Of a stretch of DNA of 64,000 nt, positions 4,118 to 63,733 are shown in pieces; position 1 is the stretch's first letter, and every line of letters starts with the position of its first letter. The notes under the pieces were generated by a model that saw nothing but the letters and a program-made list of their open reading frames with translations, made no database searches and was not told the DNA's origin. Position numbers and translations under genes: made by a program. The DNA comes from an uncultured Acidobacteriota bacterium (GTDB lineage: Bacteria > Acidobacteriota > Thermoanaerobaculia > Multivoradales > UBA5704), in assembly GCA_963770895.1 (NCBI GenBank), contig CAVYRF010000002.1, forward strand, positions 5,568,001 to 5,632,000, written 5' to 3'.

Positions 4118-4147
4118 ACGGCTGGTGCCTTCCAGTCCGAAGTTGGG

Positions 4148-4309: not shown

Positions 4310-4330
4310 GCGGGGTATCATGCCCATGTC

Positions 4331-4545: not shown

Positions 4546-4650
4546 AAGAAGCTCGTCCGCCAGAGCCTTCGCGCCGTCAGGTCTGCTCCATGCCGGGCGC
4601 TCTCCTCGACTCCTGGTCAAAGCGCACTCAGCGCCAGCGCCCGTCACCAA

Positions 4651-4923
4651 CGGTGGGAGCAAGTGCCCGGCCCGATTGCGGTCGCGCCGCCAGGCGCGCC
4701 GCGATCGGGCCAACCGCACAGGACCGGCCTTGCTACACCTGGAAAGCCGTGGCACCGAGACCAGGCCGTATCGCGTCCTTCGCCGGTGTCCCCCTTTCCC
4801 GATTCGGAACAGCACGGCGGTCCCTGCCGCGGGGGACACCGGCGCGGGGCTTGCTCCCAAGGTCTGCGGCGGGCGCCGGCACCTTGCGCGCGACCATGGG
4901 GATTGCCGGGCGCCCGACGCACA
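4651..4923. repeat. ~270-bp structured repeat, copy 2
   Basis: Diverged direct copy of 3187-3468 with the same three stems. Confidence 0.85.
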
Positions 4924-4924
4924 G

Positions 4925-4974
4925 TGTCGACCGACCTCTATCAGCTGAGAGGATCGGTGATCGCGATCGATACC
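4925..4974 (+). pseudogene. Remnant of the vapB/vapC junction
   Basis: TGTCGACCGACCTCTATCAGCTGAGAGGATCGGTGATCGCGATCGATACC matches TGTCGATCGACCTCAAGCAGCTGAGGGAGGATCGGTGATCGCAATCGATACC at ~3706-3757. Confidence 0.75.
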
Positions 4975-5269
4975 GGGGACGGAAGAGTGCTGGCCGCGCT
5001 GCAGGCGCCTCGCGCGCTGCCGAAGTGGATCTTCGCCTTTTGCGTGGGTTGGTGCGAAGATTGTTTCGGCTAGGAGGGGTACCACGGCTTGGTCAGGCAG
5101 GCTGCGCGGCAGCCAGCGACCGATGTTCTTGTCGGAATCCCATGGGCAGATCGCCACCGGTTTGCAGGTCCGGTATGGTGCCGCCTCTCCGATACCGAGA
5201 GGTGGTGCGGCCGTGCGGTTTTGCTGTGATGCAGGTTGCGCTTGCGGGACCTCTGAGAAAGGAACGACC

Positions 5270-6034
5270 ATGAAGCGAGTACGGCAGAGCGGGCGGATCG
5301 CTGGCAGCGCGGTGATGAGCTTGATGGTTCTGGGCGGCGTTCTGGGTGCCGGGCAGCGTGCGGAGGCTGCCAGGGCAGAATACCCGCGGATGGCGCCGAT
5401 CGATCAGTACATGATGTCCGACCGGAATGCCGAGATCGCTTTGGCGCGCAGCGCGGCCCCGGAGGCCATATCTCGCGACGCCAGGATCCTGGTGCTGGGA
5501 AGGCATGGGTACGAAACGGCCGTCGAAGGCAAGAACGGGTTTGTGTGCATCGTGGAACGAGGGTGGACCAGCGCCTTCGATTTCCCGGACGTGTGGAACC
5601 CGAAGCTCCGCGGCCCGGTCTGCCTCAATCCGGCCGCCGCGCGATCGCTGATGCCGGTTGTGTACAGGAAGACGGAGATGGTGTTGGCTGGGCATTCCCC
5701 GGCGGAGATCCTCGCCAGTCTCAAGACGGCGTATCGCCAAAAGGAACTGCCCGGCCTGGAGCCCGGTGCGATGAGCTACATGATGTCGAAGGCGGCGTAC
5801 CTCACCGATGACGGCGGGCACAACATGGCGCACCTGATGTTCTACGTTTTGACCAAGGATCGCTCGACCTGGGGAGCGGACCTGCCCAAGTCGCCGATCG
5901 ACTCAGGGTCCTTCTGGTTCCCCGCCGACCTGGCAAATCCGCAAGAAGAAGGCCTTCCTCCCATCGTTGTGTTCATCGCCCCCGTCCCGACGTGGTCCGA
6001 TGGAACGGCTGCCACCCATCAAGCAATGCCCTGA
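5270..6034 (+). CDS. Secreted hypothetical protein
   Basis: GAAAGGAA RBS; signal peptide MKRVRQ..hydrophobic..AEAARA; conserved-looking core YPRMAPIDQY..EIALARSAAP..KNGFVCIVER. Confidence 0.75.
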   Translation: MKRVRQSGRIAGSAVMSLMVLGGVLGAGQRAEAARAEYPRMAPIDQYMMSDRNAEIALARSAAPEAISRDARILVLGRHGYETAVEGKNGFVCIVERGWTSAFDFPDVWNPKLRGPVCLNPAAARSLMPVVYRKTEMVLAGHSPAEILASLKTAYRQKELPGLEPGAMSYMMSKAAYLTDDGGHNMAHLMFYVLTKDRSTWGADLPKSPIDSGSFWFPADLANPQEEGLPPIVVFIAPVPTWSDGTAATHQAMP

Positions 6035-12554: not shown

Positions 12555-12672
12555 CGGTCGCCTCTCCTTGCGCTCGCTTCCCGCCGGACCATTACGGTGT
12601 GCACCACGCGCGGGTTGCATCTATAGTTTGTGCCTTGCCGTGGCGACATTGAGGATTTGCCCTGGGGGAGCG

Positions 12673-17823: not shown

Positions 17824-17916
17824 CTCCCGTCTTCCTCCCGCACCGGTCCCGGCCGCGTGGCCGGCGCCTCCGCCCGCGGGCGGAGGCCCTTCCTTCACTG
17901 CCGTGGTTGCCACAGA

Positions 17917-23766
<5,850 letters not shown>

Positions 23767-27625: not shown

Positions 27626-27852
27626 CGCCATCCTCCTGGCGCGCCCCGCGCCGCGCCGCCGCCGCCGCCGCCGCACAGCTGTCTGCCATCACCAGTACCG
27701 GTCGCAGGCAGCGCAGGTTTCAGTACCGCGCCACGGCGGGTCAGTTTACCCGGCCACCGGCGCGAAATACCTCTCTCGCCACACTTAGAGCAGGAGACCG
27801 CCGGGAGGTCCCACGCCGGGCCTGATGCGCGAGCGGTGGCGGGGGACGGCAC

Positions 27853-28872
27853 ATGGGCGGTGGGGACATCCTGGTTCTGACGGGCGACGAAGTGCGGGAT
27901 CTGCTGGCCGGGCGGGAAGGCGACGTGCTGGCGGCGGTGCGCGCCGCCTACCTGGCGCATGCCGCCGGAGCGAGCGCGCTGCCGCATTCGCTGTTCCTGC
28001 GGTTTCCGGGCCGCAGCGCCGAGCGGATCATCGCCTTGCCGGCCTTTCTGGGCGGCGGCTTCGACGTGGCCGGCATCAAGTGGATCTCCTCGTTCCCCGG
28101 CAACCTCGAGCTCGGCCTGCCCCGGGCGTCGGCGATCCTGGTGCTCAACTCGTCGGCGACCGGGCGCCCGGAGGCGATCCTGGAAGGTTCGCTGATCAGT
28201 GCGGCGCGCACCGCGGCGAGCGCCGCGGTGGCGGCGCGCGAGCTGACCGGCGGCGTGGCGCCGGAGAGCGCCGGCCTGATCGGCACCGGCCCGATCAACC
28301 TGGAGGTCGCCCGCTACCTGCGGGCGGCGCTGCCCGGCTTGGGCAGGTTCGTGCTCTACGACCTGGACGCCGCCCGCGCCGCCAAGGCTGCGGCGACGCT
28401 CGCCAGGACCCTGGGCGTCGAGGCGAGCGTCGCCGGCAGCCTGGAGGCGGTGCTGGCCGGTTGCTCGCTGGTGTCGTTCGCCACCACGGCAGGCACGCCG
28501 CACGTCGACGACCTGTCCCGCTGTCCGCCCGGCGCCGCCATCCTGCACGTCTCGCTGCGGGACCTGGCGCCGCAGGCCATCCTGCGCTGCGACAACGTGG
28601 TCGACGACGTGGATCACGTGTGCCGCGCGCAGACCTCGGTGCACCTGGCGGAGATCCAGTCGGGCTCGCGCTCGTTCATCCGCTGCACCCTGGCCGACGT
28701 CCTGTCCGGTGCGGCGCCGCCGCGGCGCGACGGCAGCTCCATCGCGGTGTTCAGCCCGTTCGGCCTGGGAGTGCTGGACCTGGCGGTCGGTGGGCAGGTG
28801 CGCGACCAGGCGCTGGCAGCCGGCCGGGGGCGCACGATCCCCTCCTTCCAGCCGACCGCCGATCCGGACTGA
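27853..28872 (+). CDS. sbnB: SbnB-type ornithine cyclodeaminase family enzyme (L-Dap biosynthesis)
   Basis: LPHSLFLRFP..ERIIALPA..GIKWISSFPGN..RASA, ISAARTAASAA, LHVSLRDL and VFSPFGLGVLDLA motifs; adjacent to sbnA. Confidence 0.9.
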   Translation: MGGGDILVLTGDEVRDLLAGREGDVLAAVRAAYLAHAAGASALPHSLFLRFPGRSAERIIALPAFLGGGFDVAGIKWISSFPGNLELGLPRASAILVLNSSATGRPEAILEGSLISAARTAASAAVAARELTGGVAPESAGLIGTGPINLEVARYLRAALPGLGRFVLYDLDAARAAKAAATLARTLGVEASVAGSLEAVLAGCSLVSFATTAGTPHVDDLSRCPPGAAILHVSLRDLAPQAILRCDNVVDDVDHVCRAQTSVHLAEIQSGSRSFIRCTLADVLSGAAPPRRDGSSIAVFSPFGLGVLDLAVGGQVRDQALAAGRGRTIPSFQPTADPD

Positions 28873-29067
28873 GAGCGGGCGGGCAGCAGCGTTGCCGCCA
28901 GACGAGCGTCCAATTTTGTTGGTAGTATTTAGATACTCGAACAAACGGAAAGCGCACATGCGCTATCGTGTCTCTATCGTTGCACAATTGCGCACTTCTA
29001 TGGGCGAAGGCATGTTGTACCCGCCGGGGCCCGCAGGCCCATGGCCTACCGGGTCGAGGAAGATGCC

Positions 29068-30168
29068 ATGAGTCGACAGAAGGGCGCCGCGGGCGTCCAA
29101 CATACGGGAGTGTTGTCAGCCATCGGCGGCACTCCGCTGGTGCGGCTCGATCGGCTCTTCCCGGATGCAGGCTTCGACCTGTACGCCAAGCTAGAGGCGC
29201 TCAACCCCGGCGGCAGCTCCAAGGACCGGCCGGCGCTGGCCATTCTGGACGGCGGCCTGCGCTCGGGCGCCATCGACGGCGCGAGCGTCATCGTCGAATC
29301 GAGCTCAGGCAACATGGGCATCGGCCTGGCGCAGACGTGTCGCTATCACGGCTTGCGCTTCATCTGCGTGGTCGACATCAAGGCGTCGCCGCTCAATCTC
29401 AAGATCATGGAGGCGTACGGTGCCGAGCTGGTGCAGGTCACCGAGCCGGACCCGGTGTCGGGCGAGTGGCTGCAGGCGCGCATCAACCGTGTCCAGCAGC
29501 TGGTGCGCGAGATCCCCAATGCCTTCTGGCCCAACCAGTACGCCAACCGCGACAATTCCGCATCGCACTACCGCACGACCATCGAAGAGCTGGTCTGGGC
29601 GTTGGAGGGCAAGCTCGACGTGCTGTTCGTGGCGACCAGCACCTGCGGCACCATCCGCGGCTGCTGCGAATATGTGCGCGAGCACAGGTTGCCGACGCGG
29701 GTGGTCGCGGTGGACGCGGCGGGCAGCCTGATTTTTGGCGGCGTACCCCGCCCGCGCATGATCCCCGGCCTGGGCGCCGGCATCCGGCCGCCGCTCTGCG
29801 ACCCGGCGCTGATCGACCAGGTGGTGCACGTCACCGACGGCGAGTGTGTCGCCGGCTGCCGCCTGCTGGTGGCGCGCGAGGCGATCCTGGCCGGCGGCTC
29901 CTCGGGTGGAGTGGTGGCGGCGGTGGCGCGGCTGCGCGACTCGGTGCCGCCTGGCGCCAACTGCGCGGTGATCCTGCCGGACCGCGGCGAGCGCTATCTG
30001 GACACGGTGTACGACGACGATTGGGTGACGCTGCACGTCGGCGCTCTGGATCAGCTGCCGGATCTGGGCGCCACCGATGCCTCCGCCCCCTCCGACCCTC
30101 CCGGATTGGCGGGTGCGGCGGCGCCGGATCGCGCCGTGGCAATGCCGGTTCGCGCCGGCAGTATCTAG
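29068..30168 (+). CDS. sbnA: SbnA-type PLP-dependent enzyme (L-Dap biosynthesis)
   Basis: YAKLEALNPGGSSKDRPA, ESSSGNMGIG, FICVVD, WPNQYAN, ATSTCGT and RMIPGLGA motifs; GAGGA RBS. Confidence 0.9.
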   Translation: MSRQKGAAGVQHTGVLSAIGGTPLVRLDRLFPDAGFDLYAKLEALNPGGSSKDRPALAILDGGLRSGAIDGASVIVESSSGNMGIGLAQTCRYHGLRFICVVDIKASPLNLKIMEAYGAELVQVTEPDPVSGEWLQARINRVQQLVREIPNAFWPNQYANRDNSASHYRTTIEELVWALEGKLDVLFVATSTCGTIRGCCEYVREHRLPTRVVAVDAAGSLIFGGVPRPRMIPGLGAGIRPPLCDPALIDQVVHVTDGECVAGCRLLVAREAILAGGSSGGVVAAVARLRDSVPPGANCAVILPDRGERYLDTVYDDDWVTLHVGALDQLPDLGATDASAPSDPPGLAGAAAPDRAVAMPVRAGSI

Positions 30169-30600: not shown

Positions 30601-48018
<17,418 letters not shown>

Positions 48019-48022
<4 letters not shown>

Positions 48023-51000
48023 CCGTCGCGGCGCCGCGGCAGCGGGCGCCCGACCGCGACGACGACCTGCGGCCGGTCTGGGAGCTGGCGGAGCGGGTCG
48101 TCGGCGACTGGCAGCTGGAGCGGCCGGTGGTCAAGCTCCTGGAGCACAAGAAAAACGTCACCTTCAAGGTCGAGGAGACGGCCGGCGCGCGAAACCGCTA
48201 CGTCCTGCGCGTCTGCGACCCCGACGGCTACGGCGAGGCGGAGATCCGCTCCGAGCTGCGCTACCTGCTGGCCCTGCACCAGGCGACCGGCCTGGTGGTG
48301 CCCGAGCCGGTGCGCACGCGCGACGGAGCGCTGCTCGGGCGCGGCGAGCACGCCGGTCTGGCGCGGCCGCGCTGGTGCGCGCTCTTCCGCTGGGTGCCGG
48401 GGCGGATGGTCGAAGACACGCCGGCGCCGGCGCTGCTCGAACGGGTGGGGGAGATCTCGGCGCGGCTGCACGCCTTCTCCGGCGAATGGCTGCCGCCGGC
48501 CGATTTCCGCCGGCCGCGCTGGGACGCGGCGGGCCTTTTCGGCAGCGGCGATGCTGGCGGCGGCGCGGTGCTACCCGCCGGCCAGGGGGCGCCGCTGGTG
48601 GGCGATCGCGCGCGCGAGCTGGTGGAAGAGGGCGCCGCGGTGGTGCGGGCGGCGATGCGCGACCTGGGCGAAGGGCGGGACGTCTTCGGCCTGATCCATA
48701 AGGACCTGGAGCCCGACAACACGCTGGTCGACGGCGACCGCGTGCACGCCATCGACTTTGCCGACCTGGGCTGGGGGCACTTTCTGTACGACATCGCGGC
48801 GTCGCTTCTGCCGCTGCGCGAAAAGGCCGGCTTTGCCGCCATGCGCCAGGCGTTCCTGCGCGGCTACCGGCGCGTGCGCCCGCTCGCCGCCGAGCACGAA
48901 GCGCTTTTGGAAACCTTTCTGATCGCGCGCGGCATCTTTTCGCTGCGCCTGATGACCGGCCGGCTGTGGGACCTGCCGCAGATCCGCCTCTACGCCGAGA
49001 CGGCCGTGCCGCAGATCCTGGGCGGCATCCGCGTGTTCCTGGCGCGGCGCCGCGCCGAGGCGGCGGGGCGGCCGGCGACGGCGGCGGGCAGCACGCAGAC
49101 CACGGTGCAGTACCTTGCCGTGCTGCGCAGCCGCGGCGTCAAGCTGTGGGTCGAAGGCGACAGGCTGCGCTACAGCGCACCGCGTCAGGTGGCGACCGCC
49201 GAGCTGCTGGCCGAGCTCAAGGAACGCAAGCAGGAGCTGCTGGGCTTTCTGGCGCAAGGCCAGGCGGCCCGCCGCCTGGGGGCGCCGGTAGCGCTGGCGG
49301 CGGCGGGGCTGGAGCGCCCGCCGCTGTCGTTCGCCCAGCAGCGGCTCTGGTTCATCCACCAGCTGCTGCCGGCGAGCACGGAATACAACATCGCGCGCGC
49401 CGTGCGCCTGCGCGGCGCGGTGCGCGTCGGCGTGCTGGCGGCGAGCCTGCGGGAGATCGTGCGCCGCCACGCGGTGCTGCGCACCACCTTCGCCCTCCAC
49501 GATGGGCAGCCGGTGCAGGTGATCGCTGCCGCCGGGCGCGTGCCGCTGCCGCTGGTCGATCTGGGCGCCCTGCCGCTTGAGCGGCGCGAGCCCGCGGCGT
49601 GGGGGCTGGCGTTGGCCGACGCGGCGCGCCCCTTCGACCTGGCGCGCGGGCCGCTGCTGCGCGTCTGCCTGCTGCGCCTGTCGGCGACGGATTTCATCGC
49701 GCCCAGCACGATGCATCACGTGATCGGCGACGGCTGGTCGAGCGCCGTGCTGTTTCGCGAGCTGGGGGCGGTGTACGCGGCGGTGGCGCGCGGCGCGCCG
49801 TCGCCGCTGCCGGAGCTGCCGCTGCAGTACGCGGACTTCGCGGTGTGGCAGCGGCAGTGGCTGGCCGGCGACGTGCTTGCCGAACAGCTCGATTTCTGGC
49901 GGGGGCAGCTGGCAGGCGCGCCGCCGGTGCTCGCCCTGCCGGCGGACCGGCCGCACCCGCCGGTCGCCGCGGCCGCCGGCGCGCCCGGCGATCGCCGGGC
50001 GCTGCTCATCCCGCAGCCGCTGGCCGCGGCGCTCAAGACGTTCAGCCAGGCGCAGGGCGCGACGCTGTTCATGATCCTGCTGGCGGGATTCAAGACCCTG
50101 CTGTGCCGGATCTGCGGCCAGGACGACGTGGTGGTCGGCTCGCCGATCGCCAACCGCAATCGCACCGAGATCGAAGGGTTGATCGGTTTTTTTGCCAACA
50201 CCCTGGTGCTGCGCACCGTTTTTACAGGCGATCCCACCTTCCGTGAAGTGCTGGGCAGCGTGCGCCAGACGACGCTGGGTGCCTATGCCCACCAGGATCT
50301 GCCGTTCGAAAAGATCGTCGAAGAGCTGCGCCCCGAGCGCGACCTGACGCAGACGCCGCTGTTCCAGGTGATCTTCACCTTCCAGAACGTCCCGTATCCC
50401 GACATGGACGTGGCGGATTTCCACATGACGCTGATGCCGCCCACCGGCCGCGCCGCGATGTTCGATCTCACCTGCAACATGAAGGAGATGCCCGAGGGGG
50501 TGCGGACCTCCTTCATGTACCGGCAGGACCGTTTCGACGGCGCCACCGTCGAGCGCTTCGCCGGCTGGTATCTGCGGCTGCTCGAAACCGTCGCGGCCGA
50601 CCCCCACCAGCGCATCCGCGAGCTGCCCCTGCTGTCGGCGGCGGAGACCCACCAGCTGCTGCGGGAGTGGAACGACACCGCGGCCGAGCGCGGCGGGGCG
50701 GCAGATTGCTACGCGTGGATCGCGGCGCAGGCCGCCCGCACCCCCGACGCCGTGGCCGTGGCGGCGGAGCGCCGGCAGGTGACCTACGGCGAGCTGCTGG
50801 CGCAGGCCGAGCGCCTGGCGGCGCGCCTGCGCCGGCTGGGCGTCGGACCCGAGGTCCGGGTCGGCATCGTGGCCGAGCGCTCCGCCGCCATGGTGATCGG
50901 CATCGTCGGCGTCCTGGCGGCGGGAGGCGCCTACGTGCCGCTCGATCCCGATCAGCCGCGGCAGCGCCTGGCCTTCATGCTGGCCGACGCCGCGGCGCCG

Positions 51001-54000
51001 GTGCTGCTGATCGAGGAGCGGCTGCACGGCGTGCTGGCGCCGCCGGCGGGCATGGCGGTGGTAGAGCTGCAGGACGAAGGGGCGGACGCGCCGGCGGCCG
51101 GGTCCGCGCCGGCAGTTGGGGAGGCGGCGGCGGGGACGGCGGGGACGAAGGGGGCGGTCGACGCGGCGGGCGCCGCCTACGTGATCTATACCTCGGGCTC
51201 GACCGGCCGGCCGAAAGGGGCGGTCAATTCCGCCGGCGCCCTGGCCAACCGCATCCAATGGATGCAGGATCAGTACGGCCTCACCGCCGCCGACGCGGTG
51301 CTGCAGAAGACGCCGTTCGGCTTCGACGTCTCGGTGTGGGAATTCCTCTGGCCGCTCGCCACCGGCGCCCGCCTGGTGATGGCGCGGCCCGGCGGCCACC
51401 TGGACCCCGCCTACCTGCGCCGGCTGATCGTCGAGGAAGGGATCACCACCCTGCACTTCGTGCCGTCGATGCTGCAGGTCTTCCTGGCCCAGGACGGCCT
51501 CCTGGAGTGCCGCTCGCTGCGGCGGGTGATGGCGAGCGGCGAGGCCCTGCCCGCGGACCTGGCGTTGCGCTGCACCCGCTGGCTGCAACAGCTGGCAGCC
51601 GGCGAGCCCGCCGCGGCGCTGCACAACCTGTATGGCCCGACCGAGGCGGCGATCGACGTCACCAGCTGGCGGTGCGACGCCGACGCGGTGAGCGAGCCGG
51701 TGCCCATCGGCCGGCCGATCGCCAACCTGCGCCTGCGCGTGCTGGATCGCGAGCTGCGCCCGGTGGGCGTGGGCGTGGCGGGCGAGCTCTGCATCGGCGG
51801 CCAGGGCGTGGCGCGCGGCTATTGGGGCCGTCCCGAGCTGACGGCCGAGCGCTTCGTCCCCGATCCGCTGGCCGAAGACGCCCCCGGCGAGCGCCTGTAC
51901 CGCACCGGCGACCTCGCCCGCTGGCGCCACGGCGGCCAGGTCGAATACCTGGGGCGCATCGACTTCCAGGTCAAGGTGCGCGGCGTGCGCATCGAGCCGG
52001 GCGAGATCGAAGCCGCGCTCGCCGCGCACCCCGCCGTGCGGCAGGCGGCGGTGCTCGCCCGTCCGGCGGCAAGGGACGCGCCGCCGGGGCCGGCGTCTCC
52101 GGGGGCCGGTGAGGGGGCAGCCGCCGGTCCGCGGCTGGTTGCATACCTTGTGACCGGCGAGCCGGCGCCGGGTGCGGCGGAGCTGCGAGCGTTTCTGCGC
52201 CGCACGCTCCCCGAAGCCATGGTGCCGCAGGCGTTCGTCGCGCTGGCGGTCCTGCCGGTGGGGCCGAACGGCAAGCTGGACCGCAAGGCGCTGGCCGCGC
52301 TGCCGCTGGGTGAGGTGGACGGCGCGGTGGCGGCTCGAGGGCCGCGAAGCGCCGTGGAAGAGATTGTCGCCGATCTCTTCCGCGAGGTGCTGGGCCGCGA
52401 CCAGGTGGGCGTCGACGCCGGTTTCTTTGAAATGGGCGGCCACTCCCTCCTGGCGGTCCGCCTGGTGGCGCAGGTGCGCCGGGTCTTCGCCGTCGAGCTG
52501 CCGGTGCGAGCCGTGTTCGACGCGCCCACCGTCGCCACCCTGGCGGCGCGGATCGAGGCGGCGCTGCGCCAGGGCGCCCCGCCGTTGCCGCCGCTCGTGC
52601 CGCGCCGCCTGGCGGCGGCAGGCGCATCGCGGCCGCCGCAGCCTGCCGATACGTCGTGGCCATCGCAGCCCGCCGACTTGTCACTGCCGCGTCCGCCCAC
52701 CACGGCGCCGCTCTCGTTCGCCCAGGAGCGCCTGTGGTTCCTCGACCAGCTGGAGCCCGGCACCGCCCTGTACAACATGCCGGCGGCGCTGCGCCTGCGC
52801 GGCCCATGGCAGCCGGCGATTCTGCGTCGGGCGTTCGCGGAAGTGGTGCGCCGCCACGAGACCCTGCGCACCCGCTTCGTGCCTGGACCCCCTCCGGCGG
52901 CGGAGCTGATCGCGGGCGGCGTGATGCCGCTGCCGTGGATCGACCTGTCCGGCGTTCCGGCGGCATCCGCGACAGCCCGCGCCTGGCGCGAGCTGGAACG
53001 GCTGGCCGGTGAGGAGGCGCGGCAGCCGTTCGACCTGGCGCGCGGGCCGCGAGATCCGGCGAGTGCCGGCGGGCCACCGCGGCCGGCCGGCCTGTTGCGG
53101 GTACGGCTGGTGCGGCTGGCAGCCGACGACCAGGCGCTGCTTGTCACGGTGCATCACACTGTCGCGGACGGCCTGTCGCTGGGCGTGCTGGTGCGCGAAC
53201 TGGCTGCTCTGTACCAGGCCTTCGCGGCGGGGGCTCCGTCGCCGCTGCCCGAGCTGCCGATTCAGTACGGCGACTACGCGGCGTGGCAGCGGTCGTGGCT
53301 GGCCGGCGAAAGGCTGGAACGCGAGGTGGAGCAGTGGCGGGAGCGGCTGGCGGGAGCCCCGCCGCTGCTGGCGTTGCCGCTCGACCGGCAGCGGCCGGCG
53401 GTCGCCAGCCACAGGGGAGGGAGCGTGCCGGTGCGGCTGCGCCCTGCACTGCGCGCGGCGCTGGCGGCGCTGGCGAGCCGCCACGGCGCCACTGTTTTCA
53501 TGACCCTGCTTGCCGGCTTGCGCACGCTCCTGGCGCGGGCCGCCGGCGAGCGCGACGTCGTGGTCGGCACCGCCGTCGGCGGCCGCTCGCACGTCGAAAC
53601 CGAAGGCTTGATCGGCCTCTTCGTCAACACCCTGGTGTTGCGCACGGATTGCGGCGGCAACCCGGACGTCGCCGGCCTGTTGGCGCGGGAGCGGGAAACG
53701 ACCCTGTGGGCCTACGGCCATGCCGACCTGCCCTTCGAGAAGCTGGTCGAAGCCCTGGCGCCGCGGCGCAGCCTGGCCCATTCGCCGATCTTCCAGGTCA
53801 TGCTGGTCTTCCAACAAGACCCCTTGGGTGCCGGCGCCGTGGCCGTCGAGCCGCTGGGCGCAGGAACCCGGGCCGCCGGGTCGGTGGTCCCCGTTACCCG
53901 AGCCACAGGGTTCCCGACCGCCGAACCCGCGGCGGTTGCGTCGCTGACGGCCGAGGCCATGAGCGTTGGCGCGTCGCAGGGTGGCCTGGAGCACCTGGCG

Positions 54001-57000
54001 ATGCGGAGCGATTCCGCCAAGTTCGATCTCAGCCTGGCGCTGTCGCACGACCTGACGGGCACGCTGACGTTCGCGAGCGACCTGTTCGATCGCGCCACGG
54101 TGCTGCGGTGGAGCGAGAGCCTGGCGCTGCTGTTGGAAGGCATGGCGGCGGACCCCGGCGCCCCGGTGATGCAGCTGCCGGTCCTGGCCGCCGGGGAGCG
54201 CGCCCAGCTTATCCACCAGTGGAACGACACCGCCGTCGCCCTGCCGCCCTTGCTGTTGCACGACTTGGTCGCGGCCCAGGTGGCGCGCACCCCGGATGCG
54301 ATCGCCGCGGAGTTTGACGACCGCTGCATGAGCTACGCGGAGCTGGGCTTCCAGGCCGCCGGCCGAGCCCGGAGCCTGCGCGAGCTTGGAGTGGGCATCG
54401 ACACCCCGGTGGCGGTCGCCGCCGAGCGCGACCCTGACGTTGTGGTAGCCCTCTTGGCCGTGCTGACGGTTGGCGGCGTCTGCCTGCCCCTCGATCCAGC
54501 GCTGCCGGACCATCGCCTGCGCGAAATGACCACTGCCGCCGGCACCACTCTCCTCCTGGCGCAAGAGAGCCTTCGCGACCGATGCGAGCCTTTCTGTCCT
54601 CAGGTGCTTGCGCTCGACGGTCCGGTGAGAACGGAGAGAACCTCGGCCCGCGGCGACTGGGTTGCGAAGCCGGGTGGCGTCGATGGAGCGGCCCGCCAAA
54701 CGAACCGTGGAACCGCCGGCGTAGTGGCCGTGGACACGGGCCAGGTGGCCGCCGACGCAGGGGCTCGCGAAACGAGCCAGATGGCCGGCGATGCCGCGGC
54801 AAGCAAAACGGGTCAGGACGCCGCCGATGCAGCGGCTGGCAAAACGGCCCAGGTGGCCGCCGATGGGGCGACCGGCGAGACGGGCCAGGGCGCCGCTGAT
54901 ATGGGCGATACGGCGGCGCAGCGGACGCGCGTCACGGCCGACGGCGATGCGCTCGCTTACATCCTGTATACCTCGGGGTCGACCGGGCGGCCGAAGGGGG
55001 TGGGGCTTTCGCACCGCGCTTTGGTCAATCGGCTACTTTGGGCACAGGCGGAGTATCCGCTGCGCCCGGATGACCGGGTGCTGCAGATCGCCGGGTGCGG
55101 ATTTGACTTCGCGGTGTGGGAGACGTTTGCGCCGCTGATCGCCGGCGCCCGGCTGGTGTTGGCGCGGCCGGGCGGGCAGCAGGACCCCGCCTACCTGGTG
55201 GCGACCTTGCGCGAGCGCGGGATCACCATCGCCCACTTCATCCCGTCGATGCTGCAGCTGGTCCTGGACGAACCGGGGCTTTCCGCGTGCACTGGGTTGC
55301 GCCACCTGTTTTCGGGTGGCGAGGCGCTGCCGGCGGCGCTGCGGGACCGCACGCTGGCGGTGGTGCCTGGTGCCATCCTGTGGAACCAGTACGGCCCCAC
55401 CGAGGCGACGGTGGACGCCACCTTCCACCGCTGCGGCGGCGGTGGGCGAGTGGACGACCAGGGGGCGGGGCTGCCGGCGACCGCCGCGGCGGAATGCTGC
55501 GGCGTTGCATCGGACGCCTGGACGGTGCCGATCGGCGGGCCGGTTGCCAACACCCAGGTCCACCTGTTGGATGGCGGCCTGCGACCGGTGCCGATCGGCT
55601 GGCCGGGCGAGATCCATATCGGCGGCACGGCGTTGGCGCGAGGCTACCTGGGCCAGGCCGATTGGACCGCCGAGCGCTTTGTGCCCGATCCGTTTGCCGG
55701 CGAGCCCGGCGGCCGGCTCTATCGCAGCGGCGACCAGGCGCGGCGGCGCGCGGACGGCGCGATCGAATTTGTCGGCCGCGCCGATCGCCAGGTCAAGGTG
55801 CGCGGCTTCCGCGTGGAATTGGGCGAGGTGGAGGCAGCGCTGGCGGCGCTCGCCGGCGTGTGCGAGGCGGCGGTGGTGGCGCCGGGCGGCGAACGGCTGG
55901 TGGCGTGCGTGGTGGCGGAGGGGGCCACGGTGGGCGAACTGCGGCGGGCGCTGGCCCAACGGCTGCCGGCGGCGATGGTCCCGGCCGCTTTCGTGTTGCT
56001 GCCGTCGCTGCCCAGGACGCCCAACGGCAAGGTGGACCGCCGGGCGCTGGCGGCGCTGCTGGCCGATGCCCCGCCAACGCCGGGAGAGCCGGGGGCGCCG
56101 GCGGTGCCAGGGGACATCGCGCCGCGGTCGCCGGCGGAAGAGCTGCTGGCCGGTCTGTTCGGCCAGCTCCTGGGGCGCGCGGACGTCGGCGTCCAGGACG
56201 ACTTCTTCGAGCTGGGCGGCCACTCCCTGCTGGCGGTGCGCCTGGTGGCGCAGGTGCGCCACGTGTTCGGCGTGGAGCTGGGGGTGCGGTCGGTCTTCGA
56301 GGCGCCGACGGTCGCGGCGCTGGCCGTGCGCGTCGAGCAGGCGGCGCGGCTTGATCGTCCGGCACCGCCGCCGCTGGTCCGCGTGCCGCGCCCGGCGCCG
56401 CCGCCGCACGCCGGCGGGGCGCCGGCGCCCGCCGCCGCGACGGTCGTGCCGCTGTCGTTTGCGCAGGAGCGCCTCTGGTTTCTCGAGCAGCTGGAGCCCG
56501 GCACGGCGCAATACAACATCCCGGCGGCGCTGCGCCTGCGCGGCAGCGTGTCGCCGGCGGTCCTGGCGCGGGCCTTCACCGAGGTGGTGCGCCGGCACGA
56601 GGTGCTGCGGTCGCGCTTCGTGGCCACCGACCCGCCCGCGGCGGAGGTCGCCCCCGCCGCGGCGCTGCCGCTGCCGCTGATCGACCTGGGCGGGCTCGCC
56701 GCGGCGCCTTCCGCGGCCGGGCGCGAGCTGGCGCGGCTGGCGCGGGAAGAGGCGCGGCGGCCGTTCGACCTGGCGCGCGGCCCGCGAGCTGAGGCGAGTG
56801 CCGGCCGGCCACCGCGGCCGGCCGGCCGAGCTGAGGCGAGTGCCGGCGGGCCACCGCGGTCCGCCGGCCGAGCTGAGGCGAGTGCCGGCTGGCCACCGCG
56901 GCCGGAAGGCCTGCTGCGGGCGCGGCTGGTGCAGCTGGGGCCCGCCGACCGGGTGCTGCTGTGCACCTTGCACCACGCGGTGGCGGACGGCGCCTCGCTG

Positions 57001-60000
57001 GGTGTCCTGGTGCGCGAGGTGTCGGCGCTGTATGCCACGTTCGCCGCGGGGCTGCCGCCGGCGCTGGCCGAGCTGCCGGTCCAGTACGGCGACTACGCGG
57101 CGTGGCAGCGGTCGTGGCTGGCGGGGGAGCGGCTGGAGCGGGAGGTGGAGGGGTGGCGCGAGCGGCTCGCGGGGGCGCCGCCGGTCGTGGCGCTGCCGCT
57201 GGACCGCCAGCGGCCGGCGGTTGCGAGCCACCGCGGTGCGAGCCTGGCGGTGCGGCTGCGGCCCGAGCTGCGGCAGGCGCTGGCGGCGGCGGGGCGCCGC
57301 CACGGCGCGACCCTTTTCATGACGGTGCTGGCGGGCTTCCAGGCCTTGCTGGCGCGCTGCGGCGGCGAGCGCGACGTGGTTGTCGGGACGCCGGTCGCGG
57401 GGCGCTCGCACCTGGAGCTGGAGGGCCTCATCGGCCTGTTCGTCAATACGCTGGCGCTGCGCACCGACCTGACCGGCCAGCCCGGCGTGGGCCAGACGCT
57501 GGCGCGGGCGCGGGAGGCGGCGCTGTGGGCGTACGGACACGCCGAGCTGCCGTTCGAACGGCTGGTGGAGGCGCTGGCGCCGCAACGCAGCCTGGCGCAC
57601 GCGCCGCTGGTCCAGGCGATGCTGTCGCTGGAGGAGGAGCCGCCGGGCACGCTGCGGCTGGGGGACGTCCAGGCTACCGCCCTGCAGGTCCACTCGGCCA
57701 CGGCGAAGCTCGACCTGCTGCTGGCGCTGGGCGGCGACCTGACGGGCTCGATCGAATATGCCACCGACCTTTTCGACCGCGCCACCATCGAACGCTTCGT
57801 GCGCCACCTGGAGCGCCTGCTGGGCGGCGTCGCCGCGGATGCGCCCGGCCCCCTGGCGGAGCTGCCGCTGCTGGAGGAGGCCGAGCAGGCGCAGCTGCTG
57901 CGGGAGTGGAACGACACCGCGGCGCCGGCCGGCGAAGGCTGCCTGCATGAGATGTTCGCCGCGCAGGCGGCGCGCACTCCCGCGGCCGTTGCGGTGGCGG
58001 TGGCGGGCGGCGAGCGGCTGACCTATGCCGGGCTGGCGGCGCGGGTCGCGGCCCTGGCGGAGGTGCTGCGCGGCCACGGCGTCGGCCCCGAGGTGCGGGT
58101 GGGGGTCCTGCTGCCGCGCGACGCCGACCTGCTGGTGACCCTGCTGGCCGTGCTGCAGGCGGGGGGCGCCTACGTGGGGCTCGACCCGGCCTATCCGCGC
58201 CCGCGGCTGGCCTGGATGGTCCAGGACTCGGCGGCGGCGCTGGTGGTGACGCGCGGCGGCCTGGCCGCGTTGGTCGCAGGGAGCGGCGCTCCGGTGGTGC
58301 GGCTCGAAGCGCTGGCGGCGCTCGCAGGAGGCACAGGGAGCGCAGGGGTGGCGGCGCCGGCAGCGGCTGGAGCGGACGCCGCGGCGGTCGCCGGCGCGCC
58401 GCGCGCCGCCGTGCCGCAGAACCTGGCGTACCTGATCTATACCTCGGGCTCGACCGGCCGCCCCAAGGCGGTGGGGATCGAGCATCGCAGCGCGGTGGCG
58501 CTGGTGGCCTGGGCGCAGCGCACCTACGCCGCCGCGGAGCTGGCGAGCGTGGCTGCGACGACGTCGGTGTGCTTCGACCTGTCGGTGTTCGAGCTGTTCG
58601 TGCCGCTCGCGACCGGCGGCCGGGTGGTGCTGCTGGCCGACGCCCTGGCGTTGGCCGGGCTGCCGGCCGACGACGCGGTGACGGGGGTGACGCTGCTCAA
58701 CACCGTGCCTTCGGCGGTGGCGGCGCTGGTGCAGGCCGGGTCGCTGCCGCCGTCGGTGCGCACCGTCAACCTGGCGGGCGAGGCACTGTCGGGGAGCCTG
58801 GCGGATCGGCTGTACGGCGCGGCAGCGGTGGCGCGGGTGGTGAATCTTTACGGTCCGTCCGAGGACACCACGTATTCGACCTGCAAGGAGGTGGCGCGGC
58901 AGCGGCCGGGCGAGCCGACGATCGGCCGCCCGCTGGACAACCGGCACGCCCGCGTGCTGGATGCGGCGGGCCTGGCGGTGGCGCCGGGGATCGCCGGCGA
59001 GCTGTGCCTGGGCGGCCGCGGCCTGGCCCGCGGCTACCTGGGGCGCCCCGACCTGACGGCGGACCGCTTCGTCCCCGACGCCTGGGGCGGCGAGCCGGGG
59101 GCGCGCCTCTATCGCACCGGCGACCTGGCCCGCCACCGGCCGGACGGCGAGCTGGAATTCCTCGGCCGCCGCGATCACCAGGTGAAGGTGCGCGGCTTCC
59201 GCATCGAGCTGGGCGAGGTCGAGGCCGCCCTGGCCGCGCTGCCCGGCGTGCGCGAGGCGGCGGTGGTGGCGGCGCCGGAGAGCGATCGGCTGGTCGCCTA
59301 CGTGGTCACCGACCACACCGCCGGCGCGACGCCCACGGCGGCGGCCGCTGCCGGCGACCTGCGCCGGGCGCTGGCCGCCCGGTTGCCCGCGGCGCTGGTC
59401 CCGGCAGCCATCGCGTTTTCCGCGGCGCTGCCGCGCACGCCCAACGGCAAGGTCGACCGCAAAGCGCTGGCCGCCGCGGCGCCCGGTGCCGCAGCCGGCG
59501 GCGGCGGCCTGCCGCTGGCGCCGGCCGCGCCGCGCGACGAGCTGGAGCTGGCTCTGCACGGCGTCTGGGAAGAGGTGCTGGGCGCGCGCGGCGCGATCGG
59601 CATTCGCGACCACTTCTTCGACCTGGGCGGTCATTCGCTGCTGGCGGTGCGCCTGGTGGCGCGCGTGCGCCAGCGCCTGGGCGCCCAGATCAGCCTGGCC
59701 AGCCTGTTTGTCGACGGCACCGTCGAGCGCCAGGCGGCGCTGCTGCGGCAGGGCGGCGGCATGCCGGCGGGCGCCGCGGCGGCTGGGGCGCCGGCGCGCT
59801 CGCTGGTCCAGGTGCGGGCCGGCGGCGGGACGCCCCCCTTCGTCTGCGTCCACCCGGTCGGCGGGAGCGTGCTGTGCTACTTCGAGCTGGCGCGGCGGCT
59901 GGACGCGGCGACCCCATCCGGCCGCCCGTTCTGGGGCTTGCAGGCGCCGCCGGCGCCGCCCGCGTTGCAGCCGGCAGCGATATCGGTGGAGGAGATGGCG

Positions 60001-60714
60001 GACCGCTACCTGGCCGAGCTGCGCGCCGCGCAGCCGGACGGCCCCTACCTGCTCGGCGGCTGGTCGATGGGGGCGCTGGTCGCCTTCGAGATGGCGCGCC
60101 GCCTGCGCCAGGCCGGCCGGCCGGTGGCGGCGCTGGTGCTGCTCGACCCGCCGCCGGCGGCTCGCCCAAGCGGCGCGGCGGCGCCGGCGGAGCTGGAGCC
60201 GGCGCAGGCATCCATCGCGCTGCTTGCCAGCTTTGCGCGCGACCTGGCGGCGCTCGGCGGCCTGGAGGCGCCGGGTGTTGCGGCGGACCTGGAGCGGCCG
60301 GAGCAGCTCGCAGAGACGCTGCGCGCGGCGACCGATGCGGACGATGCCGTCCGGCGCCTGTGCGCCTGGGCGCGGCGCACCGGCGCCCTGCCCTCCTACG
60401 TCGGCGACGGCCTGGTGCGCGAGCTGTCGCAGGTGTTCCTGGCCAACCTGGCCGCCGCCCGCGCATACAGGCCCGCGGTCTACGACGGCGCCTGCGACCT
60501 GCTGCTCGCCGCCGGCACCGCCGATGCCAGCAGTGCCGGCAGTGCCAGCGGTGGCACCGGCGCCGCCGCCGATCTCTCGCGCGGCTGGGCGCGCTACGCC
60601 ACCGGCGGCGTGCGCATCACGGCGGTGCCGGGCGGTCACTACGGCCTGCTGCGCCAGCCGGATGCCGCCTGCTGGGCGGCGGCCCTGGCCCAGGCGCTTT
60701 CCACCAGCCTATGA
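48019..60714 (+). CDS. Phosphotransferase-fused NRPS: APH-like kinase-TubC_N dock-C-A(Ser)-T-C-A(X)-T-C-A(Ala)-T-TE, about 4231 aa
   Basis: GTG overlaps the upstream TGA. Kinase HKDLEPDN and IDFAD; docking LRSRGVKLWVEGDRLRYSAP; manual codes DVWHMSLIDK (Ser-like), DFWHFGQVDK and DLFNNALTYK (Ala); TE GWSMG. Confidence 0.9.
54736..54909 (+). repeat. About five degenerate 36-bp tandem repeats inside A domain 4
   Basis: TGQVAADAGARE/TSQMAGDAAASK/TGQDAADAAAGK/TAQVAADGATGE/TGQGAADMGD. Confidence 0.75.
56785..56910 (+). repeat. Three 42-bp tandem repeats inside C domain 5
   Basis: CGAGCTGAGGCGAGTGCCGGC.. starts at 56785, 56827 and 56869 (RAEASAGxPPRxxG). A single related copy lies at 53050-53091 in C4. 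Confidence 0.85.
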
Positions 60715-62450
60715 AGGCCATCGGCACTCTGCTCGGCTTCCTCTACCGGCAGGCGCGCGGCCTGGCCAGCCTGGCGATCGCGGCCGGCCTGGTGAGCGGC
60801 GCCGCCGGCGCGGCGCAGCTCGCCATCCTCAACGCCGCGATCGACCAGGACGACGCGCACCGCCGGCTGGCGCTGTTCGCCGGCTTCGCGGCGCTGCTGC
60901 TGGTCGCTCCCGCCTCCCGGCTGGTCTGCCAATACCTGATGGTGAAGCTCGGCCAGGACGTGGTGTACGACCTGCGGCTGCGCCTGGCCGGCCTCATCGT
61001 GTCGGCGCCGCTGGCGCACCTGGAGCGGCTCGGCCCGAGCAAGCTGCTGGCGGCGCTCACCGACGACACCAGCGCCATCACCGAGGCGCTCATCGTGGTG
61101 CCGGAGGTGGCCAGCAACGGCGCCCTCTTCCTGGCCGGGCTGGTCTACCTGGGCTGGCTGTCGCCGCTGCTGCTGACGGCCTTCCTGACACTCTTCGTGC
61201 CGGTCCTGGTGCTCTACCGGTTCCCCGTCGCCAGCGCGTTCGAGCGCTACCGGCTGGCGCGGGAAGAGCAGGACGTCCTGTACGGCGCCTTCACCGGCGT
61301 CACTGCCGGCGCCAAGGAGCTGAAGCTGAACGCCGAGCGGCGCGCCGCCTTCTTCGGCCGGCTGGCGGCCACTGCCGGCGGCCTGCGCCGCCTGTTCGTG
61401 CGCGCCAACGTCACGCTCGCCGCGGCCGTCGCGGGCGCCTGGACGTTCTTCATGGCCGCGGTCGGATTGATCCTGTTCGGCGCGCCGCTGGTGCGCCCGG
61501 TGCCGCGGCAGACCCTGGTGGGGTACGCGCTGGTGCTGCTGTTCCTGCGCGGGCCGCTGCAGCTGGTGGTGGGGTCGTTTACGGCTCTCGGCCGCGGCGG
61601 CGTCGGGCTGCGCAAGCTCGAACGCCTGGGCTTCGAGATGCGGCAGTCCGCCGAGGCGGCCGAGCCCGCGGCGCCGGCCGCCGCCGGCCGTGCCGTCGCG
61701 GCTGCCGGTGCTGCCGGAGCCGCCGCCGGGTGGCGCCGGCTGGACCTGGAAGGCGTGACGTTCAGCTTCCATCGCGAGGACGGCGAAGCGGACTTCCTGC
61801 TGGGACCGGTCGACCTGACGCTGCGGCCGGGCGAGCTGGTCTTCCTGATCGGCGCCAACGGCAGCGGCAAGACCAGCTTCGCCAAGCTCCTGGCCGGCCT
61901 GTACGAGCCTGCCACCGGCGAGATCCGCTGGGACGGCGAGCGCGTCGACCGCGCCGGCCTGGACCGCTACCGGCAGAACTTTTCCGCCGTGTTCCACGAT
62001 TTCTATCTCTTCGCCGAGCTGCCCGGCGCGGCGCGGCCGGACCTGGCCGAGGTGTCGCGGCGCTACCTGCGCGACCTGCACCTGACGGGCAAGGTCGAGA
62101 TCGCCGACGGCCGGCTGTCGACGACCGACCTGTCGCAGGGGCAGCGCAAGCGCCTCGCCCTGCTCGCCGCGTACCTGGAGGACCGGCCGATCTACCTGTT
62201 CGACGAGTGGGCGGCGGACCAGGACCCCTACTTCAAGGAGGTGTTCTATCGCCGCATCGTGCCGCGGCTGCGGGAGGCCGGCAAGACGGTCGTGGTGATC
62301 AGCCACGACGACCGCTATTTCGACGTCGCCGACCGCATCGTCCGCTTCGACGAAGGGCGTGTCTCCTTCGGCGGTCCGGCGACACCTGCAAAGATAGGGA
62401 GCTCAATCGACGCTTCATCAACTACAATGCACGAACGAGAGTGCGTATGA
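60711..62450 (+). CDS. Cyclic peptide export ABC transporter (SyrD/PvdE/YojI family)
   Basis: ATGA overlap; GAKELKLN; Walker A GANGSGKT; FSAVFHDFYLF; LSQGQRKRLALL..LFDEWAADQDP. Confidence 0.92.
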   Translation: MKAIGTLLGFLYRQARGLASLAIAAGLVSGAAGAAQLAILNAAIDQDDAHRRLALFAGFAALLLVAPASRLVCQYLMVKLGQDVVYDLRLRLAGLIVSAPLAHLERLGPSKLLAALTDDTSAITEALIVVPEVASNGALFLAGLVYLGWLSPLLLTAFLTLFVPVLVLYRFPVASAFERYRLAREEQDVLYGAFTGVTAGAKELKLNAERRAAFFGRLAATAGGLRRLFVRANVTLAAAVAGAWTFFMAAVGLILFGAPLVRPVPRQTLVGYALVLLFLRGPLQLVVGSFTALGRGGVGLRKLERLGFEMRQSAEAAEPAAPAAAGRAVAAAGAAGAAAGWRRLDLEGVTFSFHREDGEADFLLGPVDLTLRPGELVFLIGANGSGKTSFAKLLAGLYEPATGEIRWDGERVDRAGLDRYRQNFSAVFHDFYLFAELPGAARPDLAEVSRRYLRDLHLTGKVEIADGRLSTTDLSQGQRKRLALLAAYLEDRPIYLFDEWAADQDPYFKEVFYRRIVPRLREAGKTVVVISHDDRYFDVADRIVRFDEGRVSFGGPATPAKIGSSIDASSTTMHERECV

Positions 62451-63733
62451 ATGCTTCAGGCCGCATGCAAATGGCGCTGTTCCGAGCCCGCGACGTCTGG
62501 CGGCAGGCGGTCGGCGCCGTCGTCGAACGGCAGGACCGGCGGGAGTTCGCGGCGTTCCACCGCGGCCTGGTGCGGCGCCAGGACATTCTCTACATGTTCT
62601 TCACCAGCGACCTGCTGCACTGGCTGGACCGGGCGCTCGCCTGCGTGCCGCCGGCGGTCAACCTGGTGCTGATCGGCTCGGACCTGTCGGCGGATGAACT
62701 GGCGTGGATCCGTTCGCGCTACCGCCGGCCGTTCCACCACATCCGCTCGCGGGTGGACGACAACACCGTGCTGGACCTCGCCTTCCGGGCGGCGGCGGGC
62801 AACTTCGGCTGGCTGCACGTCGACTGCTTCGTGCTCAACCCGCGGCTCTTCCAGGAGATGGCCGACCTGCCCGACGACGTGGTAGCCAACTGCATCTGGT
62901 CGCACCCGGCGGCGCCGAGCGCAACCGGTGCGCACGATGGCCCCGGTGCGTCGAGCGCGGACGGCGCCCAGGCCCTGCACTCGGCCTTCGTCTTCATCAA
63001 CTACGGCGTGATCCGGGCGCTGCGCCGGCGCGGCCTGCTGCCGTCGCCGTGCAGCCACCACTACCAGGGCGCCGCGACGGGGCGCACGGTCACCCGCCGC
63101 AAGCTCTACAGCCGGGTGCCGCGGCGGCGCCACGTCGCCCAGCTGGCGCGGGTGCTGCCGCCCGGCGCCGACGGGCTGCCGCAGTATCCGCAGCGGGGCA
63201 ACTATTTCCAGGTTCTTGTCGTATTTCAGCTGGTAGCGAACGCGCTCGGCTACCGCCTCCGCCAGGTGCGCGATCTGCGGCGCGACGGCACCGGCTCGGC
63301 GGCCAACTTCTCGAACGAGATCGTGCATGTCAACGGCGTCGCCACCTACAAGTCGTACCGCGACGATGCGACGACCATCGGCGGGCGTTTCTACCCGCTG
63401 TTGCTGCAGGCGGACTACGTGATGCTGGCGGCGCTGGGAGACGACGTGCCGCCGCGCTACCGCCAGCTGCGCGGTGAGCTGGAAACCGAGCTGACCCGCC
63501 TGCGCATCCCGGTGCGGGCGGCACGGCGCAACCTCGGCGCCTTTCTGGCTGAGCGCGGCATCGCCCCCGATCGCGCGGCACTCATCCTCGGCAAGCCCGA
63601 AGCATCCGAAGCGCCGGTAGCGCCCGCAACACCCCTGGCGCCCCTTGCAGTCACCGCGCCCGAAGCGAGCCCCGAAGCACACCGGGAACCTGCCCTGGCC
63701 GGCAGGACTTCCGTACAGGAGACACATCGATGA
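62447..63733 (+). CDS. Hypothetical protein, possibly GT-A glycosyltransferase-like, 428 aa
   Basis: ATGA overlaps at both ends. NFGWLHVDCFVLNP resembles a GT-A DxD strand, followed by HSAFVFIN and a late IVHVNG. Confidence 0.6.
   Translation: MNASGRMQMALFRARDVWRQAVGAVVERQDRREFAAFHRGLVRRQDILYMFFTSDLLHWLDRALACVPPAVNLVLIGSDLSADELAWIRSRYRRPFHHIRSRVDDNTVLDLAFRAAAGNFGWLHVDCFVLNPRLFQEMADLPDDVVANCIWSHPAAPSATGAHDGPGASSADGAQALHSAFVFINYGVIRALRRRGLLPSPCSHHYQGAATGRTVTRRKLYSRVPRRRHVAQLARVLPPGADGLPQYPQRGNYFQVLVVFQLVANALGYRLRQVRDLRRDGTGSAANFSNEIVHVNGVATYKSYRDDATTIGGRFYPLLLQADYVMLAALGDDVPPRYRQLRGELETELTRLRIPVRAARRNLGAFLAERGIAPDRAALILGKPEASEAPVAPATPLAPLAVTAPEASPEAHREPALAGRTSVQETHR

Follow-up and report, generated by a model that had tools for sequence, protein, structure and literature searches.

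Kinases of the aminoglycoside phosphotransferase (APH) family are known from several gene clusters for natural products, and what is said of them below follows excerpts of the cited papers. AmiN is encoded in a cluster of polyketide synthase (PKS) and nonribosomal peptide synthetase (NRPS) genes and phosphorylates a hydroxyl group of the product; AmiN-like kinases share 32–98% identity within their subfamily and possess an additional substrate-binding loop (PMC7314540). ComG, a stand-alone APH protein of a myxobacterial PKS/NRPS cluster, phosphorylates a PKS-derived hydroxyl group of corramycin in self-resistance, and Cph is cited in the same work as an APH-related kinase of a peptide antibiotic (PMC10996006). 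For class V lanthipeptides the pair SprPT/SprH3, comprising a PF01636 kinase and a HopA1-like protein, is proposed to dehydrate serine and threonine residues of the peptide (PMC7794033), and a kinase domain inside a cyanobactin macrocyclase is known as well (PMC12639078). A full-text literature search of main articles found stand-alone natural-product kinases and no description of an APH domain fused to an NRPS. Here, we analyze such a fusion in NRPS3, an NRPS encoded on a stretch of 64,000 nucleotides (the window) from an uncultured soil Acidobacteriota bacterium of the class Thermoanaerobaculia (assembly GCA_963770895.1, contig CAVYRF010000002.1). Its main features, with condensation (C), adenylation (A), thiolation (T) and thioesterase (TE) domains and positions in nucleotides of the window or amino acids (aa) of the protein, are the following:

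48019–60714, plus strand: NRPS3, 4231 aa, with the order APH, linker, TubC_N, C-A(DVWHMSLIDK)-T, C-A(DFWHFGQVDK)-T, C-A(DLFNNALTYK)-T, TE
48019–49062, plus strand: APH-fold kinase domain, aa 1–348, from Pfam, the AlphaFold2 model and Foldseek
48697–48720, plus strand: Brenner motif HKDLEPDN (H227, D229, N234)
48751–48765, plus strand: metal-binding motif IDFAD (D246, DFG-equivalent)
49063–49101, plus strand: linker, about 12 residues long, that joins the kinase to the docking domain, aa 349–361
49108–49257, plus strand: TubC_N-type beta-hairpin docking domain, aa 364–413
49321–50661, plus strand: first condensation domain of NRPS3

Kinase and NRPS lie uninterrupted in one open frame (47263–60714) with 0 stop codons between kinase and docking domain. 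The start is GTG 48019, which fits the database protein and homologues, overlaps the TGA of the upstream NRPS (48020–48022) as GTGA and has GGAAGG ahead of it. Pfam recognizes APH (PF01636) at aa 46–288 (48154–48882) with 88.5 bits (cut-off 23.2) and TubC_N (PF18563) at aa 364–413 with 65.5 bits (cut-off 26); behind the latter follow three Condensation, three AMP-binding and three PP-binding domains and then one Thioesterase. The in-frame tethering of the kinase claimed by the original prediction is thus borne out by the open frame and by Pfam, and the motifs considered intact were found exactly where it had placed them, i.e. HKDLEPDN at 48697 and IDFAD at 48751, besides NVTFKV and YVLRV in the N-terminal translation. 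With the Brenner signature HxDxxxxN and the DFG-like aspartate both present, the domain belongs to the APH family. In the AlphaFold2 model of aa 1–420 (alignment of 50 sequences, mean predicted local distance difference test score, pLDDT, of 91.4) a bilobed kinase spans aa 18–348, the linker block 351–360 reaches a mean pLDDT of 63, and aa 362–419 show a helix, two strands and further helices, which is the docking domain fold. Contrary to its usual place this TubC_N domain is not N-terminal, as about 360 residues of kinase and linker precede it. Judged from sequence and model, the N-terminal 348 residues are a putatively catalytically competent small-molecule kinase of the APH/homoserine-kinase-II-like group.

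Because the same architecture recurs across homologous clusters, the fusion can be taken as confirmed and not as an assembly artefact, the support for its junction being conservation, not reads. Concerning the junction region (49000–49150), for which a check with reads had been suggested, public soil-metagenome contigs match exactly on both sides (48113–48285, 48624–49022, 48781–48993 and 49105–49314) but none of them spans 49023–49104, leaving the junction itself without an independent read. Among public sequencing runs, seven soil-metagenome runs share words with the window (share at most 0.23), and no RNA run was listed.

A search of long proteins with aa 1–430 yielded 14 other NRPSs of 2592–6692 aa with 46–71% identity over 88–98% of the query. 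With the kinase alone an exhaustive profile-free search gave 4301 matches at E≤1e-3; among the best 150 of them 22 show APH-TubC_N, usually with C-A-T directly behind, and the remainder are mostly proteins of about 330 aa with 32–46% identity, ten proteins of 580–710 aa pairing APH with another domain. The fusion is present in 6 of the 401 genomes of the class, own genome counted, and about 38 fused loci were fetched by contig scans. The search for APH, TubC_N and Condensation in this order elsewhere, as proposed in the original prediction, was therefore successful in dozens of loci, all named records being Thermoanaerobaculia or Acidobacteriota metagenome-assembled genomes. In the following, G denotes genomes of the Thermoanaerobaculia set, L fetched loci and :C a contig. 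Locus flanks comprise 10 kb or less, many contigs are short, and some loci are duplicates (L042 and L119 match G357:C58, L049 matches L056, L125 equals G209:C5 and L129 equals G313:C78).

A quick maximum-likelihood tree, with three L133 fragments left out, joins all 38 fused kinases in one clade (Shimodaira–Hasegawa-like approximate likelihood ratio support of 99) separate from 14 stand-alone relatives. According to this reconstruction the fused kinases share a single origin. Over 50 sequences H227, D229 and F247 show no variation, and conservation reaches at least 90% at R64, N234 and D246. Both HxDxxxxN and [IVL]DFx[DEH] occur in 46 of 47 locus copies. A long-branch copy (L019:8779–9951, minus strand, on G313:C36) departs from this and reads HADFTFTEN with one extra residue in the Brenner motif; behind it come a C domain and a TE-like stretch, then further modules, and it may be decaying or repurposed.

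In all fused copies examined the kinase is located directly at the docking domain. One and the same assembly line can contain subunits that begin with TubC_N only besides those that begin with APH-TubC_N; since junctions of the former kind dock without it, the kinase is not part of docking as such. Lines with two kinases contain two subclades with the motifs HGDLQVTN and HGDLTPKN, kept in at least 3 records, and on the evidence of the tree the two kinases of one line are old distinct subclades and not recent duplicates. Co-inheritance extends to the first C domain, which is 71% identical to the corresponding copy of G357 compared with 43–53% for the other C domains of G357.

As to the type of kinase, 6EF6 leads the PDB sequence matches (17 at E≤1) with 1e-25 in phmmer, ahead of AmiN (1.4e-10) and the type II homoserine kinase of Agrobacterium (2.6e-5). 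Foldseek ranks 6EF6 (E 5.7e-18, template-modelling score, TM, 0.81) before AmiN 6SUI (4.3e-16) and 2PPQ (8.5e-13). The models of type II homoserine kinase (ThrB2) cover only the C-lobe of the kinase and remain far from assignment, TIGR00938 with 52.0 against 255.9 bits and NF003558 with 57.1 against 271, and an identity of 18–20% to AmiN in Foldseek alignments lies below the range of the AmiN-like subfamily. As 6EF6 and AmiN rank nearest while the homoserine-kinase equivalogs are far below cut-off, we place the domain, by likeness of sequence and fold, in the amino-alcohol/antibiotic kinase branch of the APH family, outside every characterized subfamily.

The possible substrates depend on the neighbouring genes, where the PKS contains ketosynthase (KS), acyltransferase (AT), ketoreductase (KR) and acyl carrier protein (ACP) domains:

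25064–27676, minus strand: ADOP-family duplicated permease (TIGR03434)
27853–28872, plus strand: SbnB equivalog (TIGR03944, 394.7 bits, cut-off 326.9)
29041–30168, plus strand: SbnA equivalog (TIGR03945, 421.6 bits, cut-off 349.95)
30601–41103, plus strand: PKS with the order KS-AT-KR-ACP-KS-AT-(about 740 aa with Rossmann motif)-ACP
41096–48022, plus strand: NRPS2, C-A-T-C-A-T, both A codes DIWE[V/I]TADDK, presumed start ATG 41096
47702–48019, plus strand: last T domain of NRPS2 and C-terminal docking tail ending LQEGEL
60711–62450, plus strand: cyclic-peptide export ABC transporter (TIGR01194) with ATGA overlap with the NRPS3 stop
62465–63733, plus strand: accessory protein of 422 aa, no Pfam or NCBIfam family, weak GT-A-like fold

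The G+C content is about 72–78% across the cluster, and codon-position G+C marks a run of plus-strand genes from 27.8 to 63.7 kb. The earlier assignment of SbnA and SbnB holds, as both equivalog models score above cut-off and the genes are adjacent, which identifies the pathway to 2,3-diaminopropionate (Dap). In the PKS two KS domains with the active-site cysteine are found and no loading module. Its first KR keeps the Ser/Tyr/Asn motif, and for this reason a ketide hydroxyl is to be expected. In PKS module 2 the stretch of about 740 aa that separates AT from ACP (38542–40770) returned no family in a Pfam scan; it carries a GGLGxxG Rossmann motif without a recognizable KR catalytic motif and probably represents a decayed or very divergent reductive region.

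The A-domain codes were read by aligning each A domain to module 1 of NRPS3 in ten specificity columns, with position numbering and code-to-amino-acid assignments that we take to be the usual ones:

NRPS2 A1: DIWEVTADDK, presumably Dap
NRPS2 A2: DIWEITADDK, presumably Dap
NRPS3 A1: DVWHMSLIDK, Ser-like
NRPS3 A2: DFWHFGQVDK, no amino acid assigned
NRPS3 A3: DLFNNALTYK, Cys-like

On these presumed assignments the serine module expected behind the docking domain is indeed there. The codes DIWE[L/I/V]TADDK and DFWHFGQVDK found no match in a literature search, and DSALIAEVWK was found as a His code. DIWExTADDK can be read as a Dap code because of its acidic pocket, its likeness to a published code for 2,4-diaminobutyrate that ends in DDK (PMC12283262), and the fact that SbnAB follows this code. 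In the related proteins the first module after the kinase varies: it is of Ser/Thr type in 6 of the 22 proteins with a complete first A domain and in 6 of 20 readable loci (a set that overlaps with the 22 proteins), and otherwise, among others, of Val-, Leu-, Gln-, Tyr-, Orn- or Cys-type. Cys-type codes (DLFNNALTYK and variants) occur in kinase-bearing subunits, namely in 7 of the 22 proteins and in several loci. Two in-frame tandem repeats are seen within NRPS3, one of 36 nt × 4.6 in A2 (54736–54900) that encodes a low-complexity insert rich in Ala/Gly/Asp, the other of 42 nt × 3.1 in the third C domain (56778–56905) encoding a low-complexity insert rich in Arg/Pro/Ala.

Upstream of the kinase three contexts occur. 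The one of the window is C-A[DIWExTADDK]-T-C-A[X]-T followed by the APH subunit, X being the same Dap-type code in the window, L037, L042/L119 and L043, the His code DSALIAEVWK in 8 loci and an Asx-type code in L048. In a further context Thr-Ser (L053, L122) or Thr (L130) precedes the APH subunit. In the remaining one (G313:C78, which is L129, and L127, L128, G317:C31 and L054) a PKS carrier is followed by a TubC_N-fused reductase of the old yellow enzyme (OYE)/pyridine-nucleotide type and by two kinases in a row, APH-C-A(Val)-T and APH-C-A(Val/Ile)-T and so on. PKS domains are present in 6 of 7 cluster contexts with enough sequence. The kinase is independent of the adjacent amino acid. The acidic tail that had been claimed for the upstream NRPS exists (LQEGEL), and a C-terminus of the form E-x-E-[L/I] is seen in 21 of 23 upstream partners; such conserved tails fit docking to the domain right behind the kinase. 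A complex prediction of APH-TubC_N with the upstream T domain and tail scored 0.21 and 0.13 against a mark of 0.32.

Stand-alone enzymes of about 715–735 aa that combine TubC_N, Oxidored_FMN (OYE) and Pyr_redox_2 are encoded between PKS and kinase subunit in L017 (9188–11329, plus strand) and L023 (67–2274, minus strand). They resemble 2,4-dienoyl-CoA reductase, and their make-up suggests that these lines enlist trans-acting tailoring enzymes by way of docking domains. In the closest relative an insertion of about 1.4 kb lies before the T domain of the second Dap-type A domain (L042:6882–9678, L119:3781–6577).

SbnAB adjoins the cluster in the window, in G209 (2022846–2024842) and in G401 (3910–5879, on the TE strand), i.e. 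in 3 of 3 cases of the closest family with enough contig. SbnB and the fusion reside on different contigs in G357, G020, G402 and G403, and no NRPS domain was found in the flanks of SbnB in G357 and G020 or of an unlinked second SbnAB pair of G209. G313 (99% complete) with its three fusions has no SbnB match at E≤1e-10, and L053 is a seemingly complete cluster with fusion and without a Dap-type module. As judged from these loci, SbnAB tracks Dap-type modules and not the kinase, this being the outcome of the proposed check on co-occurrence of kinase and sbnAB.

In our estimate the chances are about even that the tethered kinase O-phosphorylates the polyketide–peptide chain at or after subunit hand-over, or the product after release. 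Held by its flexible linker of about 12 residues to a docking domain that would capture the upstream E-x-E-[L/I] tail, it would transfer phosphate from ATP to a hydroxyl of this chain, the substrate being either the intermediate still bound to the upstream carrier domain during hand-over or the freshly released product. The phosphate would stay on up to export or longer and give a phosphorylated product or a masked, self-protected form. We infer the chain as acceptor and persistence of the phosphate, and a hydroxyl as acceptor group because the KR-made ketide hydroxyl is the sole traceable acceptor and PKS domains are so frequent in these contexts. This reading is favoured because a short linker tethers the kinase at the point of carrier delivery and because AmiN and ComG are analogues; the two exporter genes flanking the cluster (ADOP permease and ABC transporter) and the position-specific use of kinases (TubC_N alone or APH-TubC_N, two subclades) count for it as well, and so do the recurrence of the fusion, its single clade and the retained catalytic residues. 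Of the four options of the original prediction, those of on-line and of final-product phosphorylation consequently come out favoured after comparison, albeit with no acceptor atom assigned.

Several observations weigh against phosphorylation of chain or product. No acceptor keeps a fixed position, the residue upstream of the kinase being variable (Dap-type, His-type, Asx, Ser, Thr, Val or a PKS carrier), and simple self-resistance would hardly call for two kinases in one line. Rather than a natural product, the best match, 6EF6, phosphorylates a free amino alcohol, the relation to AmiN is distant (about 20% identity), ComG is not among the PDB matches, and every characterized product kinase in the literature examined is stand-alone. 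The amicoumacin cluster runs a kinase–phosphatase cycle (PMC7314540), unlike the window, where no phosphatase family was detected among the open reading frames scanned (some frames have no family, and the task could fall to a housekeeping phosphatase).

The phosphate could also be transient, turning a ketide or Ser/Thr hydroxyl into a leaving group that is then eliminated, or displaced by a Dap amine or Cys thiol, so that an alkene, a dehydro residue or a ring results, either by the neighbouring C domain or by thioester chemistry. A tether at the hand-over point would suit carrier-bound chains, the C domain behind the docking domain was inherited together with the kinase, Cys-type codes recur in kinase-bearing subunits, two kinases in a row would fit two position-specific steps, and the class V lanthipeptides provide a precedent in the dehydration proposed for an APH kinase with a HopA1-like partner (PMC7794033). 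We nevertheless consider this course unlikely. In the precedent the kinase co-occurs with the HopA1-like partner in 99.49% of cases (PMC7794033), but the own genome, at 94.95% completeness, yields 0 matches to HopA1 (PF17914), so that a pair of the lanthipeptide type is missing there. Besides, C1 and C2 of NRPS3 show ordinary HHxxxDG motifs when read off the translation, and several lines lack a Ser/Thr module as far as their sequence was seen, e.g., Dap-Dap-Val-x-Leu or Dap-His-Gln-Val-Gln. Phosphorylation and elimination of serine in particular, once listed as an option, is disfavoured by this lack of a HopA1-type lyase and by the low share of Ser/Thr-type first modules; the variable first module, the SbnAB pattern and the two-kinase lines speak against Ser-specific chemistry and against phosphoserine supply alike.

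Such a supply would mean that the domain is a free amino-alcohol kinase providing a precursor, here O-phospho-L-serine for SbnA and thereby Dap for the two DIWExTADDK modules. SbnA requires O-phosphoserine, both equivalogs are encoded in the cluster and adjoin it in the closest family, among solved structures the top match phosphorylates a free amino alcohol, and a type II homoserine kinase is matched too. Against this stand the three fusions of G313 without SbnB match, the fusion of L053 without Dap-type module, the separate contigs of SbnB in four genomes, the two anciently distinct kinases in one line and the homoserine-kinase models with 52–57 bits against cut-offs of 256–271; furthermore the fusion partner of the kinase is not sbnAB but the docking domain of an NRPS that lies 19 kb away from these genes. 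We therefore regard this option of the original prediction as very unlikely. An even slighter chance is given to a kinase that leaves the product unmodified and serves as a structural, dimerizing or ATP-sensing element of the junction, or protects against another compound. It would agree with the lack of an assignable acceptor and the constant position at the docking domain; however, the residues for catalysis and metal binding have survived in 46 of 47 copies despite divergence down to 31% identity, and other junctions of the same lines dock without a kinase.

The most far-reaching interpretation is one that we offer only tentatively, its probability being clearly on the low side. The kinase would then be a “K domain”, an on-line tailoring kinase that phosphorylates the carrier-tethered chain exactly at hand-over, each copy acting position-specifically, and the phosphate would protect a group, act as a leaving group or provide a handle for extension to a phosphodiester-linked group by the accessory protein. 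For this accessory protein 70 homologues were found, all nameless, in which the motifs DD and D-C-F are invariant. The model of the protein (pLDDT 87) matches GT-A glycosyltransferases only weakly (E about 1e-5, TM about 0.3), and the ESM Atlas gives a minor lead to Glycos_transf_2. It is encoded in the cluster neighbourhood in 9 of 9 close (group-1) relatives where it was found: in G209 and G357 its gene directly follows the TE, in G401 it lies about 4 kb past the TE, and in L038, L040, L045, L117 and L118 it precedes the kinase subunit, adjacent to the ABC exporter and/or ADOP permease. As an obligate partner of the kinase it was rejected, having been found in the closest cluster family only and not in G313, G317 and G020.

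A MacB-like gene in every locus was considered as a meaningful sign and dropped, since NCBIfam names it ADOP permease. A second ADOP permease lies in the window (10083–12620, minus strand), similar genes occur in almost every related locus, and as the family is presumably abundant in Acidobacteria, a permease beside the cluster is weak evidence of linkage. Outside the cluster the window encodes on its minus strand a hybrid histidine kinase of 1949 aa (17917–23766) with about ten HAMP/HAMP_2 domains, GAF, HisKA, HATPase and two receivers, and an adjoining second hybrid kinase (15298–17913).

If phosphorylation of chain or product is true, it would join the in-line tailoring steps of NRPS and PKS systems, and the domain would become a new part for engineering. 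Cluster-encoded natural-product kinases are otherwise separate proteins in the literature examined. The fusion flags an uncharacterized family of probably phosphorylated, lipopeptide-like products of uncultured Acidobacteriota. With its about 350 aa the kinase domain is small, its model is of high confidence and it can easily be excised, so that the question of its function is directly testable.

Among known systems AmiN (6SUI/6SUM), the second-best match in sequence and fold, shares with the NRPS3 kinase the APH fold, the membership in the homoserine-kinase-II-like group, the Brenner motif, the K/R of strand beta-3 and the metal site. It differs in being stand-alone, only about 20% identical and partnered by a phosphatase of its cluster. 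The best match in both respects (27% identity), the microcompartment-associated aminopropanol kinase 6EF6, is a catabolic enzyme for a small free amino alcohol and is unconnected with assembly lines. ComG is stand-alone as well, has its own substrate-binding C-terminal region and is absent from the 17 PDB sequence matches (E≤1), whereas the class V lanthipeptide pair differs by its ribosomal peptide substrate and its obligate HopA1-like partner. The tuberactinomycin phosphotransferases Vph/Cph and SbnI, both stand-alone, are likened by description and not by sequence: tuberactinomycins contain Dap and Ser, and SbnI is a serine kinase that feeds SbnA but has a different fold. TalE/TalC of phosphoramidon are analogous to the extension of a phosphate handle by their logic only. 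The sulfotransferase of CurM is a group-transfer domain embedded in a megasynthase that activates a beta-hydroxyl, and the NRPS3 kinase is distinguished from it by fold, cofactor and position in the line.

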